DNA of 64,000 nt from an uncultured Micavibrio sp. (GTDB lineage: Bacteria > Pseudomonadota > Alphaproteobacteria > Micavibrionales > Micavibrionaceae): positions 5,575-69,574 of the forward strand of contig CAYGNI010000001.1 of NCBI GenBank assembly GCA_964351195.1, read 5' to 3'. The notes beneath the pieces are model-generated. The model did no database searches and was not told the DNA's origin. It was given only the letters and a program-made list of their open reading frames with translations. Position numbers and translations under genes: made by a program. Within the stretch, counting starts at the first letter, position 1; every line of letters begins with the position of its first letter. Shown here piece after piece: positions 58,713-64,000 of the stretch.

Positions 58713-58745
58713 GGCAGGTGCAGCGTTCTGAAGATAAATTGCCTC
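58713..58745 (+). repeat. IS6-like terminal repeat, copy E (most diverged)
   Basis: GGCAGGTGCAGCGTTCTGAAGATAAATTGCCTC is ~20/33 identical to copy D. Its left flank, gttatcgacgactgattggttaagt, parallels the copy B flank gttagtgaagactgcttggtaaaat. Confidence 0.5.
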
Positions 58746-58829
58746 TGCCCATAATATGTTTTCATAATTTTGTTGCAATGTTATTCAACTTAGCTTACTT
58801 TCTCGGTCATTATTGAAAGTGAGAGTAAA

Positions 58830-59465
58830 ATGTCTTTATCAACCAAAATGAAAAATGCTGCTGTTGGTGAGTTGCCAGATAGCGATGTTGAAGCTGCTTT
58901 GCGGCAACAATTAGCTCCGTTGATTTCGTTTTTAGAACAAGCGCAGGCGTTTGATGATGGTTATCCTGATCAATTCCCTGCTGATCAACGTGTTGCGGGC
59001 GAGGCATATAGAGAGGATGGTTTAAATATTGATAATATTGGCTGCACCTTAGAACACTCTGTCGACTTTTCTAACATTCCTGAAATTACCGATGGGCGTG
59101 AAGGACAAGGAAGATACTTAGGGATATCCATATCCGTCAAAGAACACGCACTTCATGGGGAGAATCCGCTGCTAACTAAGGTTGATTTGTTTGAAAGTGG
59201 TAAAATCCGCTTTTGGCCTCAAGAATATGAAGTCACAAGAGATGCAGATATTGAAGCTGATATTCTAGCTATTCTCAAGATTACCTTGCAGGGATATTTG
59301 CAAAATTCAGTGCAATATGGGCTTACGAGTTTCCATGAAGAAGACATCCTTAATTCTGGTGCGTATAAGCGCACGAAAGCATTAGCGGAGCTTGCTGCTC
59401 AAATATACAATGATGCTTATAGCCCAGATACTCCTGCACAAGCTCAACAGTGGCTGCCAAAATAA
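58830..59465 (+). CDS. Hypothetical protein (211 aa)
   Basis: Clean acidic ORF with no motif I recognise. First ORF after repeat copy E. Confidence 0.6.
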   Translation: MSLSTKMKNAAVGELPDSDVEAALRQQLAPLISFLEQAQAFDDGYPDQFPADQRVAGEAYREDGLNIDNIGCTLEHSVDFSNIPEITDGREGQGRYLGISISVKEHALHGENPLLTKVDLFESGKIRFWPQEYEVTRDADIEADILAILKITLQGYLQNSVQYGLTSFHEEDILNSGAYKRTKALAELAAQIYNDAYSPDTPAQAQQWLPK

Positions 59466-59631
59466 ACCGAATAAATACAAGAAACTAAACAATGAGTAAT
59501 AATACATCACAATATTTGAAAGCTGCGATGCACATAGCACGAAAAACTGCTATTCCAAATGGCTTGGCTGTAGGATCGGAGATTATTTAGGCACACAATT
59601 TGCCTCTGGGAACACATTGGGTGGAGTTTTC

Positions 59632-60660: not shown

Positions 60661-60665
60661 TCTAA

Positions 60666-63600
60666 ATGGATGGCAGTGCGCCTAATTATAAAAATTATAA
60701 AATACTCCTCGCGCTTTTAAGAAGTGTGGTCGGCGGTGATGACGCTGCCAAGCCAGCAACTGCTAATACGCTCGCTAAAAAATTAGACATAGAGTTTCCC
60801 GATGATGCCCCAATTGATCCGTTTGTTGAGTGGCTCATTCAGCATGATGATTTCGCAAACAATCCAGAGCGTTTGGAACAATTGATTAACGCAGCTACTC
60901 ATGCTTTAGCGGATGATCATAAATTCAAAGTTCTCATTAATGATTACACCAAAAGACAAGAGCAGCAAGGCGCAAAGGTTGAACGTGTTGCAGTACTCAA
61001 TGATATATTGGGCTTACGTCGTGATGGAGATACGCAAACGGCGAATAATTTAAGAGATGAGTATGGCTTCACTGAAAATGACATCGCATCTTATAAAGCT
61101 GAGCGTCATGAAAAGCTGATTCAGTTATTTGAAATTGCCGATAAGATTGGCGTGCTAGCAGCCAAACTAGAAAAATTAACAAGTGAAACGGCACGAAAAA
61201 AACCGTTGGAAGAATTAGCACAGTTTGAAGAACAATTTTCTAAGATAGCAAATGATTATGGTCTTATTGAATTTCAGGAAGATGGAAGCCAGATCACGAC
61301 GGCTGAATTTAATGCGGAATATGCTTTGTATTGTAAGGATCAAGAAGCCTATAAGGCAGGCGAAGCATCAGCCAGTTCAGCTGTGAACGCTACGGATGAA
61401 GGCGCACCTCACGATGGAGCGGGAACAGATGATGATCTGCAATCAGGCGGCTCCAAATCACCTCCCCAGCCTCCACAACAGCAATTTGTTAAAACTTTTC
61501 CTGTTCGTGATGCGGAAGGTGATTTGGCAGCTTTCTATCCAACCACAAGCTACACTGAAGCATTAACATCATATTTATCAGATCATGATGGTGATGCATT
61601 TTCTCTAGCGGTCGATTTTTCTGCTGAAGCACTCACTGTTAATAAACGCAGAATAAGAGTTGCTCAACATGCAGATATTTCAGGTTGGGACTTGCAAGCA
61701 TCAGAAAGAATAGCTCTGAAAGCAACGACACCAGAGGCTATCCTTGAAAAAACTAAAATTGATGGAACACATGGAAGCCTTGAATTTGGCAGAGCCCGTG
61801 ATGTTGGTATCTTCCTCGCAAAAGGTCACGTGAAAAGCCTTGCTGAGATTGCAAATTCTTCTATTGCGCTTAAAGAAGGTGATGTTTCTATCAACGATGC
61901 TTCATCTAGCACCACATACAAACTCTCGAAAGGAGAGTTAAGAATTGAAGGGGAAATGGATGGCGGATCGATTTATAGCATTAAAGGTGATGTTCGTATT
62001 GGAAGGGATGTCCACGATGCTCGTATCACAGTATTAAGTGGAGATTTGTATATTGACCAGAGCCTCATAAGCTCTGGTGTTACATTAAGTGAGGGGAATG
62101 TAAATGCTTTGGGAGCAATAGAAGGTTCAAAAATTGAGCTGACATCCAGAGGCGTTTTACATGCCAAAGCAGAGTTACATGGAAGTGATGTTGTGCTTAC
62201 GGGAGACGCTACAGCCGAATTTTCAGCCGATATTACGGACAGTACTATCACTGCTGCTACTAGAACAAAAGTTGCAGAAGGTAAAAAAGCATCTGATACA
62301 ACATTTGTAAAGCATATCCCTATTCATGGATCACTTCCGCCGAGTGATTGGCAGGAAGAGTGTGAACAAAAAAGAGCACCTGCAATTCAAAAAGTGCTTG
62401 AAGAGATGCCAAAGCTCTTTATTGAGGCGTTTGGTATGGGACGGCCAGGAGAACAGAATGGAAAATTTTCAAAACTATTTTGGCAAGGGCGGGGCATAAC
62501 ACTTGGCAAGGATCAACTTTCCTTTATGCAGACGATGTTTACAACATTCGATGCTGGCCTTCAGTCAGAGCATTTTTCTATTGTATCTCATGATCATAAT
62601 AAAAATGCGGGCACAATTTTAAACGCATTAAAAGCTTGCAAAGCTGGAAGTACGTCAATGGTTATTGTTCCTTTCTTTACAGATAGGGAAAAAGACAGAG
62701 TTGTCGAAGAAGACGCTTCGGAGATAAAAGGCTCTTTTAGATATCGTATTTGTATTCGTGATGGCTCAGACCCTACACGTGTTTTGTACGATAGCGATCA
62801 TAATGTGTTTGACTCAGGATCGTCTAATGGGGGTCATGGCAACGATTATTGGCAACGTCTGGGCGATCATTACATTGATATTGAAGTTGGTTCTGCGGAA
62901 GCAAACAATGCCGATGTTGATTTAGATAAAATTCGTAGTATTGCACTTGACCTTGAAAAGCCTGTAGAGGTTTTCGGTAATGTACACTATTGTCCTTTGC
63001 GCACCGCTTATGTGGAATCTGGAAAAGTTAAATTACCATATGAATGGTACCACAATGATGCTAGATCAATTTCGACAGAGATGCGTCCTGATTACTCTGG
63101 AACAGTTTCAACTTTCAGGAGTTTAGCAGATGCGGCTAAAATGTCATTCACAGCATTGAGCCGATTAGATGCTGGAGTATATGATGCATGTACATTTTCA
63201 GATATTCAAACAAATTTTTATTCGCACAATATGAGTGGCATAACACTTTCAAGCTATGCTGGAATAATTTTTGGGTCGGGTGATTTTTCTGGAGCAGCAT
63301 TTGACCAAAAGACAAAAGCAACTATTCAGTGTACAGGTGATATCACACTTACAGGGGCTAGGGTCTCTGCAGATTCAGAGCTTGAATTAACACCTGAAGA
63401 CGCTAGTCAAACGATTTTAGTCAGTGCTAATGATCTTGAAATTGATGAATCTTCATTATCGTTGGATTTCCCGAGCGGTATTGTGGACTTGAAAGGTTTG
63501 AAAGCAAGGAAAGCGACAATCACAATTGTTGCTGACGGGGATATTGACTTATCGGGTGCAACGCTTGATGAATGTCAGCTTACCGTCAAAACCAGTGGTA

Positions 63601-64000
63601 AAGTTTTATTTAATAAAGCTTCTGCAACATCGTCTAAAATAAAAATTGAATCCGATGGTGCAGAATTTGAAGAGCTAAGAGTGGGAGGAAATGACAATGT
63701 CATTGACCTCACTATTAGAAAGGCAAAATTCACGAATGCAGTTATTGCAGGCAAAACAGAAATTAAGGGTGAAGCCAAGAATGTTGATTTTAGCGGTGCA
63801 AAAATCGGAGATGACGTTCAATCATCACATGATCAATTATCATACGGTTTAAAATCTAGTAATAGTAGTTTCAATAATGCTGAATTCGGAAATGTTATTT
63901 TCTTAAAAGAAGCGAGAATTGTAGTTAAAAGCACTGATTGGGCAACAGTTAAAATAACAGGAAACGTAGCTGCTTCCGGTATCATAGCAAAAGCTCTTTA
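60666..64000 (+). CDS. Very large protein (>1,111 aa, 3' end beyond the window) with beta-solenoid and pentapeptide-repeat-like segments
   Basis: I read frame 3 from the ATG at 60666 to the window end without meeting a stop. It is absent from the ORF track, presumably because it has no stop in the window. Repeats such as GDVRIGRDVHDARITVLSGDLYIDQS and FSDIQ/TNFYS/HNMSG/ITLSS/FSGAA have 5-residue periodicity. It starts 5 nt after the vWA stop. Confidence 0.8.
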   Translation, partial: MDGSAPNYKNYKILLALLRSVVGGDDAAKPATANTLAKKLDIEFPDDAPIDPFVEWLIQHDDFANNPERLEQLINAATHALADDHKFKVLINDYTKRQEQQGAKVERVAVLNDILGLRRDGDTQTANNLRDEYGFTENDIASYKAERHEKLIQLFEIADKIGVLAAKLEKLTSETARKKPLEELAQFEEQFSKIANDYGLIEFQEDGSQITTAEFNAEYALYCKDQEAYKAGEASASSAVNATDEGAPHDGAGTDDDLQSGGSKSPPQPPQQQFVKTFPVRDAEGDLAAFYPTTSYTEALTSYLSDHDGDAFSLAVDFSAEALTVNKRRIRVAQHADISGWDLQASERIALKATTPEAILEKTKIDGTHGSLEFGRARDVGIFLAKGHVKSLAEIANSSIALKEGDVSINDASSSTTYKLSKGELRIEGEMDGGSIYSIKGDVRIGRDVHDARITVLSGDLYIDQSLISSGVTLSEGNVNALGAIEGSKIELTSRGVLHAKAELHGSDVVLTGDATAEFSADITDSTITAATRTKVAEGKKASDTTFVKHIPIHGSLPPSDWQEECEQKRAPAIQKVLEEMPKLFIEAFGMGRPGEQNGKFSKLFWQGRGITLGKDQLSFMQTMFTTFDAGLQSEHFSIVSHDHNKNAGTILNALKACKAGSTSMVIVPFFTDREKDRVVEEDASEIKGSFRYRICIRDGSDPTRVLYDSDHNVFDSGSSNGGHGNDYWQRLGDHYIDIEVGSAEANNADVDLDKIRSIALDLEKPVEVFGNVHYCPLRTAYVESGKVKLPYEWYHNDARSISTEMRPDYSGTVSTFRSLADAAKMSFTALSRLDAGVYDACTFSDIQTNFYSHNMSGITLSSYAGIIFGSGDFSGAAFDQKTKATIQCTGDITLTGARVSADSELELTPEDASQTILVSANDLEIDESSLSLDFPSGIVDLKGLKARKATITIVADGDIDLSGATLDECQLTVKTSGKVLFNKASATSSKIKIESDGAEFEELRVGGNDNVIDLTIRKAKFTNAVIAGKTEIKGEAKNVDFSGAKIGDDVQSSHDQLSYGLKSSNSSFNNAEFGNVIFLKEARIVVKSTDWATVKITGNVAASGIIAKAL

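Follow-up and report, generated by a model that had tools for sequence, protein, structure and literature searches.

Results

A conserved pair of vWA and large-protein genes

We analysed a 64,000-nt stretch of DNA (the window) from an uncultured Micavibrio sp. (contig CAYGNI010000001.1), at the right end of which a gene for a divergent von Willebrand factor A (vWA) protein is followed by a gene for a large, modular protein. The two genes make up a real, conserved two-gene unit that is horizontally mobile. As judged by sequence comparisons, this pair is undescribed and belongs to no described family. Context was available for five family members, namely, the window, a locus from an NCBI assembly (L003), and three JGI metagenome contigs (L004, L005, and L006). 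At all five loci, a homologue of the large-protein gene comes after the vWA gene on the same strand; four pairs are intact and one is disrupted, the large-gene copy of L004 being frameshifted and truncated. The gap between the two genes measures 3 nt in L003, 5 nt in the window, 13 nt in L006, and 38 nt in L005, and nothing beyond the pair is common to all loci. A sequence-only reading of the window had proposed a tight coupling of the vWA protein to its large partner and a neighbourhood analysis of vWA homologues. This analysis bore out the coupling, which is translationally close and is kept in every locus with visible context: the large partner adjoins the vWA gene in 5 of 5 core-family loci. 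Distant vWA relatives have other partners (a J-domain protein, or a relaxase in an integrase-bearing element), which makes the large partner a specific feature of the core family.

On the + strand, three open reading frames (ORFs) lie between 58.8 kb and the end of the window, all of them already described by the sequence-only reading: a 211-aa gene (58830-59465), the 277-aa vWA gene (59827-60660), and the large ORF, whose ATG at 60666 sits 5 nt past the vWA stop, exactly as reported. A GGAG sequence is found 7 nt ahead of the vWA ATG at 59827, and a Shine-Dalgarno-like AAGGG lies ~10 nt before the ATG of the large ORF, within the end of the vWA gene. The large ORF had been thought to continue past the window. 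It is indeed open to base 64000 (1,111 codons in the window), but it is not open-ended: two independent assemblies of the same DNA (L001 and L002), which supplied the remaining contig, complete it 33 codons beyond the window (virtual stop position 64102) as a protein of 1,144 aa. The ORF contains no stop or frameshift and is identical in both assemblies. Neither a signal peptide nor a membrane segment was found in the 211-aa, vWA, or large proteins (maximum Kyte-Doolittle value in a 19-residue window <1.2).

Ratios of nonsynonymous to synonymous divergence (dN/dS) against L003 were 0.17 for the 211-aa gene, 0.14 for the vWA gene, and 0.26 for the large gene, which indicates purifying selection on all three. 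Amino-acid identities between the window and L003 were 82% for the 211-aa protein, 52% for the vWA protein, and only 30% for the large protein. Synonymous divergence of the 211-aa gene was dS 0.60, whereas the pair was saturated (pS 0.74 and 0.73). Since synonymous sites of the pair are saturated next to a gene with a dS of 0.6, the pair has been swapped within a slower-evolving backbone. Furthermore, as far as base composition can tell, the pair is of foreign origin in three hosts. In the window, the G+C content at third codon positions (GC3) of the island genes from 50 kb onward is 0.28-0.37, versus 0.63-0.67 for pheS and pheT, and the overall G+C of the pair is 0.46 in L005 and 0.45 in L006, versus 0.55 and 0.54-0.56 in the respective flanks. 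At each of these three loci (window, L005, and L006), the pair is richer in A+T than the DNA on either side.

The vWA protein

The 277-aa product of 59827-60660 (+ strand) comprises a disordered Gly-rich N-terminus (~aa 1-40), a vWA fold, and a helical, family-specific C-terminal extension of ~60 residues with a conserved LTATPDEL motif. Motif, profile link, and fold together lead us to regard this product as a divergent vWA protein in which a metal site of the metal ion-dependent adhesion site (MIDAS) type is intact. The family pattern is the MIDAS D-x-S-x-S...T...D with Thr replacing the first Ser, and its positions are D66-x-T68-x-S70 (60022-60036), T135 (60229-60231), and D161 (60307-60309), all on the + strand. 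These five residues, which include the ordered triad noticed earlier, are invariant across 14 family sequences, distant relatives included; the full set of invariant alignment columns is D66, T68, S70, R71, G133, T135, G160, and D161.

The vWA call was also sustained by profile and structure comparisons. The family profile reaches a protein named by NCBI as "VWA domain-containing protein" with an E value of 1.8e-18, and hhalign joined the core family to the distant clade with a probability of 98.4%. Among curated vWA models, Pfam gave sub-threshold matches only (VWA_CoxE was best, E 0.008, followed by VWA_3, VWA, and VWA_2), and the protein had no match in NCBIfam. The AlphaFold2 (AF2) model alternates strands and helices, with a predicted local distance difference test score (pLDDT) of 57 and a predicted template modelling score of 0.58. 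A Foldseek search of this model against the PDB returned 42 matches with E<1e-3, and all the matches listed were vWA-type domains or complexes that include a vWA subunit (TFIIH p44/p34, Rpn10, CLCA1, CMG2/ANTXR1, the MIDAS of midasin MDN1, and Sec23/24). Because model confidence is low, this support for the fold is moderate.

The distant vWA relatives showed neighbourhoods of their own. Two of them (~250 aa; L007 8001-9665 and L011 7438-8988) lie directly upstream of a J-domain (DnaJ-like) protein gene, in a setting that is conserved in alphaproteobacteria, with panC upstream and genes for a D-Ala-D-Ala carboxypeptidase, a phasin, and clpS-clpA downstream. One of the J-domain-linked relatives is the NCBI "VWA domain-containing protein" of Xanthobacter sediminis, and the distant vWA relative and the J-protein may form a vWA/J-protein couple. 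At another locus (L010 6053-11841), another distant vWA relative and a relaxase gene are transcribed divergently, and HTH_17, DUF3991/Toprim, and integrase genes follow; with this gene content, the locus may be an integrative mobilisable element of small size.

The large protein

The large proteins are soluble, acidic, and 760-1,144 aa long, and a modular plan emerged when four of them and a fifth N-terminal fragment were aligned. No part of the large protein scored above threshold in Pfam or NCBIfam. In the window (+ strand throughout), an alpha-helical N-domain (aa 1-235; 60666-61370) is present in all five homologues, its helices being predicted with low confidence, and it had no PDB or Pfam match. 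It is followed by an acidic Pro/Gln-rich linker and a small conserved module (aa 236-345; 61371-61700). The PPQPPQQQ linker pointed out in the sequence-only reading is found as SPPQPPQQQ at aa 264-272, within the linker proper (aa 236-272). The small module (aa 273-345) has the pattern FP-x-x-D-x-x-G...Y-x-x-A, in which P279, D282, G285, Y296, and A299 are invariant in four homologues.

A first beta-solenoid block (aa 346-545; 61701-62300) varies in length between homologues. Its strands are predicted with low to moderate confidence, and the autocorrelation of hydrophobicity peaks at 18 and 36 residues. The next region (aa 546-835; 62301-63170) is a predicted orphan alpha/beta domain with TTF-x-G-H-x-P and FG-x-GRP motifs. 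The central globular region outlined earlier at aa ~560-830 corresponds to this domain; the structure model of the domain was not confident, and no PDB sequence match was obtained. Three of the proteins (those of the window, L003, and L005) have the domain, and that of L006 lacks it.

The second beta-solenoid (aa 836-1100; 63171-63965) is pentapeptide-repeat-like and was the sole confidently modelled part of the protein (pLDDT 70-90 for ~aa 870-1045). Family searches gave it sub-threshold matches to Pentapeptide_3/4, DUF7305, Qnr, and HalA: Pentapeptide_3 scored 16 bits (cut-off 27), Pentapeptide_4 scored 21 and 17 bits in homologues (cut-off 38), and Qnr scored ~15 bits (cut-off >=240). Profile searches of the PDB weakly matched NleL, TL15, and McbG-like proteins. 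In the fold comparison, which bears on a right-handed quadrilateral beta-helix, the top Foldseek matches of the large-protein model included AlbG, MfpA, HetL, and EfsQnr but also pectin-lyase-like solenoids, all with E>=0.1. No match to the tandem A(D/N)LXX repeats of the pentapeptide family reached the Pfam or NCBIfam threshold. Behind the earlier beta-helix and pentapeptide labels are sub-threshold matches and a model that is only partly confident; "beta-solenoid with pentapeptide-like repeats" is a fair description of the large protein. The protein ends in a tail (aa 1101-1144; 63966-64000, cut by the window end) with the pattern TDW-x-TV-x-I-x-G...LYP-x-FG-x-A-x-N-L. These last 44 residues are the best-conserved part, with 61% identity to L003 versus 30% overall, and they also occur in L006. 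Both the second solenoid and the tail are missing in the L005 homologue.

A rare family without database counterparts

When 1.84 billion representative proteins were scanned exhaustively with HMMER, no more than 16 relatives of the vWA protein came up with E<=0.001, 12 of which are clusters with E<1e-10, and on this count the vWA family is tiny, extremely rare, and patchy. Pattern scans of 185,579 species genomes gave no family match; the source genome itself lies outside that collection, and this negative is therefore weaker evidence of rarity than the HMMER scan. A word-indexed protein search overlooked most family members and likewise the large protein of L003. Searches of 72,556 plasmids, 50,697 phage records, and the IMG/VR contigs found no relative of either the vWA or the large protein.

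The 211-aa, vWA, and large proteins had no above-threshold family in Pfam, NCBIfam, PADLOC, or PHROGs, and sequence searches of the PDB, both single-sequence and profile (vWA protein, whole large protein, N-domain, central domain, and 211-aa protein), gave matches at chance level. The sequence-only reading had not recognised the combination, and its wording holds against these databases. It had also considered that both proteins might fall into a known effector or adhesin family with no conserved vWA linkage; we found no family for either, and the linkage is conserved.

The upstream block and the 211-aa gene

The acidic 211-aa protein (58830-59465, + strand; pI 4.47) is separated from the vWA gene by a 361-nt spacer (59466-59826), which matches the ~360-nt spacer with two mini-ORFs described before. 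Both mini-ORFs are present on the + strand: one encodes 32 aa (59492-59590), and the other (59632-59736) encodes 34 Gly-rich residues behind a good GGAG site and was also called by the gene caller in L001 and L002. Similarity of the window DNA to L003 spans the 211-aa gene and 79 nt upstream of it at 84.6% identity. A stretch of ~280 nt (59459-59741, + strand) without internal repeats occurs in the window but is lacking in L003. It is followed by a conserved block just upstream of the vWA gene (59742-59821, + strand), which shares 80% identity with L003 936-1016 (81 nt) although the following coding sequence has diverged to 52% amino-acid identity.

This block contains, on the + strand, the promoter-like site noted earlier (TTGACA at 59763-59768, an 18-nt gap, and TG-n-TAATGA at 59784-59792, with TAATGA at 59787-59792) and the ribosome-binding GGAG (59816-59819). 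The TTGACA and TGCTAA of the block are conserved in L003. The site is present in a block conserved at 80%; it was not called by the consensus scan, and promoter-like sites in the region were as frequent as in shuffled sequence (8 versus 8.4). More generally, promoter and terminator scans of the region remained at or below the chance level, and Rfam gave no match in the window or L001.

The 211-aa gene had been placed in a same-strand set with the pair. It is a real gene, but no homologue of it was found upstream of the pairs in L005 and L006, and sequence comparison indicates that it is an accessory neighbour outside the conserved core. A three-gene module that includes it was rejected on this absence and on its dS of 0.6 against the saturated pair. 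The pair and an upstream block of its own thus make up the functional unit that is conserved. Two further features of L003 were recorded, namely, a perfect 18-nt-stem hairpin at its start (1-51; TGTAAGGGGAGATGTTTG...CAAACATCTCCCCTTACA) and a DUF6792/lipase-like gene downstream of the pair (5761-6369).

IS6 remnants and neighbouring genes

From position 1 to 40,000, the window consists of ordinary chromosomal DNA (polA, pheST, RND efflux pumps, histidine kinases, and an RTX adhesin). The RTX/cadherin/Big_9 adhesin-like protein of this part (30130-33969, + strand; 1,279 aa) contains three tandem 297-nt repeats (31858-32748) that are 92-99% identical. Farther right, a truncated element of the IS6 family of insertion sequences (IS) occupies 41963 to ~42400 on the - strand; it consists of a 20-mer resembling an inverted repeat, GGCAGTGCTGTCAGACAAAC, and the 3' part of a transposase gene with stops farther upstream in frame. 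The translation of the transposase fragment matched 732 plasmid records, with annotated top matches named "IS6 family transposase". Window positions 40440-40700 align over their full length with the IS6 end at 41963-42200 and represent a decayed copy of it. A second IS6 copy lies beyond the window at L001 12919-13085 (virtual 64168-64334) and is 85% identical over 167 nt to 41963-42129, with GGCAGTGCTGTCAGACAAAC identical at both copies. L001 gives 232 nt beyond the large ORF, running into this IS6 sequence, which starts 66 nt after the large-ORF stop; the presence of an IS6-family element explains why both short-read assemblies (L001 and L002) break there.

A repeat of 33-49 nt with the core GGCAGGGGTTGTAGTCTGCC occurs in three same-strand copies (40642-40690, 49505-49537, and 57880-57928, + strand) with <=2 mismatches, where 0 are expected by chance, and each copy forms the left edge of a low-GC3 gene block. 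The first copy (40642-40690) is the right edge of the decayed IS6 end, and the last (57880-57928) bounds the module-bearing segment on its left side; the copies at 49505-49537 and 57880-57928 may be IS scars, or a recombination or regulatory site. An IS-like repeat had earlier been placed just before the module. This placement did not survive: no repeat was found at 58518-58829, and the nearest copy, at 57880-57928, is related to the IS6 remnants.

From these sequence matches, two segments (40.7-41.96 kb and 57.9-64.2 kb) lie between directly oriented IS6 remnants. The first carries as its single cargo, 17 kb upstream of the module, a DUF4172-Fic gene (40814-41932, + strand) with a full-length match to the SoFic defence model of PADLOC (E 1.6e-40). 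The second carries an AlkB-like gene, the 211-aa gene, and the pair. The AlkB-like 2OG-Fe(II) oxygenase (200 aa; 57915-58517, - strand; Pfam 2OG-FeII_Oxy_2, E 5e-22; PHROG "alkylated DNA repair") is divergent from the module, and at the other loci it does not accompany the pair. In L005, the neighbours of the pair are a MobA/MobL relaxase gene (divergent, ~1.2 kb away), an AbiEii toxin gene, and a large serine recombinase gene. In L006, the pair lies between ssb-uvrA and an oxidoreductase gene, an ordinary chromosomal site without mobility genes.

The island also holds a gene (50184-55073, + strand) for a 1,629-aa protein to which Pfam, NCBIfam, PADLOC, and PHROGs offered no match. The stop of this gene overlaps (ATGA) the start of an 835-aa SF2 ResIII-type helicase gene (55073-57580, + strand), which is without plasmid relatives. 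Both genes have a GC3 of 0.33-0.37, and together they may represent another two-gene unit in the island that lacks a described counterpart.

Discussion

A candidate conflict module

We tentatively favour reading the pair as a mobile, MoxR-independent vWA-plus-effector conflict module. Its role is probably one in conflict between genomes, either as defence against phages and mobile elements or as a counter-measure of such elements. Architectural variability within a preserved operon, a constant module combined with displaced or variable effectors, and rapid divergence are hallmarks of conflict systems; among the commonest domains in the "effector position" of their vWA components are pentapeptide repeats and other repeats that form superstructures (PMC7159879). 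A conflict role also gains circumstantial support from the IS6-bounded cargo beside SoFic, the AbiE, relaxase, and recombinase genes of L005, the low G+C, and the domain swapping in the large protein. In the mechanism that we propose, the vWA protein would use its MIDAS to bind the cognate large protein, as in other vWA couples; the MIDAS of vWA domains binds an acidic residue in an extended peptide (PMC7159879), and the likely contact would be a constant part of the large protein, either the N-domain and acidic linker or the C-terminal tail. The vWA protein could then serve as a stoichiometric adaptor or as a gate for assembly or activation of its partner. The solenoid protein, which evolves fast and swaps domains, would serve as the sensor/effector or a scaffold, and insertion sequences and mobilisable elements would carry the module along as cargo.

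A bolder form of this proposal, which we consider doubtful, would make the pair the founding example of an MoxR-independent, vWA-gated defence resembling abortive infection. Here the vWA protein would restrain a giant, rapidly diversifying solenoid sensor/effector and release or assemble it upon invasion, the unit would spread with IS6-type or mobilisable units, and the central orphan domain would supply an effector activity of a new kind.

Several results weigh against a conflict role. PADLOC 2.0 returned no match for the 211-aa, vWA, or large protein or for the L005 homologue, and family searches revealed no known defence, toxin, nuclease, peptidase, or NTPase domain in the module proteins. 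The neighbourhood with SoFic and AbiE genes is a weak argument, being drawn from two loci only, and L006 sits in an ordinary uvrA-ssb chromosomal site. Only five loci were inspected, the binding of the vWA protein to the large protein would follow by analogy, and the quality of the structure models is poor (pLDDT 57 for the vWA protein and 42 for the large one, which was modelled from a single sequence). Pairwise identities of the vWA protein and the large N-domain showed no clear co-variation (r = 0.33 over 10 pairs), a comparison that is uninformative because the N-domain is near saturation.

Relation to known systems

Like the MoxR-vWA ternary systems with VMAP and iSTAND components (Kaur, Burroughs, Iyer, and Aravind 2020; PMC7159879), the module joins a vWA component with a MIDAS to long, variable, repeat-rich partners, combines a constant module with swapped variable ones, and is patchy and mobile. 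Unlike them, it has no MoxR AAA+ ATPase, VMAP, or iSTAND protein in the five loci, and its repeats and effector parts reside on a separate downstream protein rather than in a C-terminal fusion to the vWA domain. The gene order also differs, being VMAP-MoxR-vWA in VMAP-type systems and vWA followed by the large protein here. Pfam domains of VMAP and iSTAND were not detected in the large protein or in any neighbour, nor were EAD or TCAD domains detected, and no MoxR AAA+ ATPase, PP2C, kinase, or other NTPase was linked to the pair in the examined loci (window, L003, L005, and L006). The one NTPase nearby in the window is the SF2 (ResIII) helicase, which is set apart from the module by an oppositely oriented gene. 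VMAP membership was rejected for want of a MoxR ATPase and of a VMAP or iSTAND component.

Stand-alone vWA couples include TerY with a PP2C and a Ser/Thr kinase, CoxD-CoxE, RavA-ViaA, and BatA-E. The module shares with the TerY-P triad and these couples a small cytoplasmic vWA protein, an intact metal site, and a tight operon with a presumed client, and the best (sub-threshold) Pfam match of the vWA protein is VWA_CoxE. It differs in lacking a phosphatase, a kinase, an AAA+ ATPase (including CoxD and RavA), or membrane Bat partners. TerY membership was rejected, there being no PP2C or kinase genes in the five loci. TerY triads, MoxR-vWA pairs, and NTPase/vWA systems had been named earlier as analogues; as a family assignment for the pair, these had to be given up, since no such partner genes are linked.

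Pentapeptide-repeat proteins (Qnr, MfpA, AlbG, the N-domain of NleL, and Hailong HalA) may share with the large protein a right-handed beta-solenoid with stretches of five-residue periodicity, and they are the top, albeit weak, sequence and fold matches of its aa 836-1100. In contrast, the large protein scores far below their cut-offs (e.g., 16 versus 27 and 19.7 versus 250 bits), its solenoid accounts for ~1/4 of a multidomain protein of 1,144 aa, and it has no HECT-like or channel domain. Membership of Qnr (~15 bits versus a cut-off of >=240) and of bactofilin/DUF583 was rejected, in the latter case because the 18-residue periodicity of aa 346-545 came with no Pfam match at E<=1.

Cargo segments bounded by IS26/IS6 are known as pseudo-compound transposons or translocatable units. 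The module, like the SoFic gene, lies as cargo between directly oriented IS6 copies or remnants, but the IS copies here are truncated, the available sequence stops within the one on the right, and no intact transposase was seen. Taken together, the module is a variant of the known "vWA plus variable partner" theme and is minimal in having no NTPase.

Other explanations

We consider it unlikely that the large protein is instead a secreted, host-directed solenoid effector, with the vWA protein as its chaperone or co-effector, a type III, IV, or VI system encoded elsewhere, and the tail as export signal. Such a protein would fit the weak resemblance, at the profile level, between the second solenoid and pentapeptide-repeat proteins, among them the pentapeptide domain of NleL, the lack of a detectable Sec signal, and the tail of 44 residues being the best-conserved part; the next gene in L003 is phospholipase/lipase-like (DUF6792), and the window genome encodes an RTX/cadherin adhesin and a Fic protein. 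However, the Fic gene is of the SoFic defence type, the L005 protein does without the tail, all pentapeptide matches are sub-threshold, and no secretion-system gene is linked to the pair in five loci; the sampled loci, moreover, come from metagenomes of unknown habitat. An improbable alternative is that the pair acts in the maintenance or transfer of a mobile element (relaxase mobilisation or segregation), the vWA protein anchoring a filament- or scaffold-forming solenoid protein. The divergent MobA/MobL relaxase ~1.2 kb from the pair in L005 and the distant vWA relative P0020 divergent from a relaxase in an integrase-bearing element point that way, as does the resemblance of the 18-residue periodicity to polymer-forming solenoids. 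Yet neither member of the pair has a relative among the plasmids, phage records, and IMG/VR contigs searched, a relaxase is absent near the pair in L006 and the window, and divergence this extreme combined with domain loss is unusual for a core function in transfer or segregation.

Still somewhat less probable is a structural or scaffold role in the host, cytoskeleton-like or envelope-associated, with the pair residing in acquired DNA by chance. Solenoid repeats next to a Pro-rich linker do resemble scaffold proteins, and distant vWA relatives occupy a conserved alphaproteobacterial core neighbourhood by a J-domain protein. Against this, the family is extremely rare and patchy, the pair is compositionally foreign in three hosts, and bactofilin and other scaffold families gave no match even at E<=1. 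Finally, the island is rich in IS6 remnants and the large gene of L004 carries a frameshift and a truncation, as would be seen if the ORFs were decaying or non-functional. This explanation is scarcely credible and was rejected given the intact ORF of 1,144 codons that is identical in two independent assemblies, the dN/dS of 0.14-0.26, and the intact pairs in four loci from different hosts.

Implications

To our knowledge, couples of a vWA protein and a variable partner are a recurring, experimentally almost untouched theme in prokaryotic conflict systems, and nearly all described vWA conflict cases need a MoxR ATPase or another NTPase. As a minimal, NTPase-free, two-gene version, the module offers a simple system in which to ask what the vWA protein does, whether as adaptor, gate, or co-chaperone. 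The catalogue of mobile defence or effector genes could gain from it a new family as well as an orphan central domain that is likewise new; should the module prove inert or purely structural, it would still be a well-delimited pair of orphan families worth database names. The pair is a clean, testable candidate.

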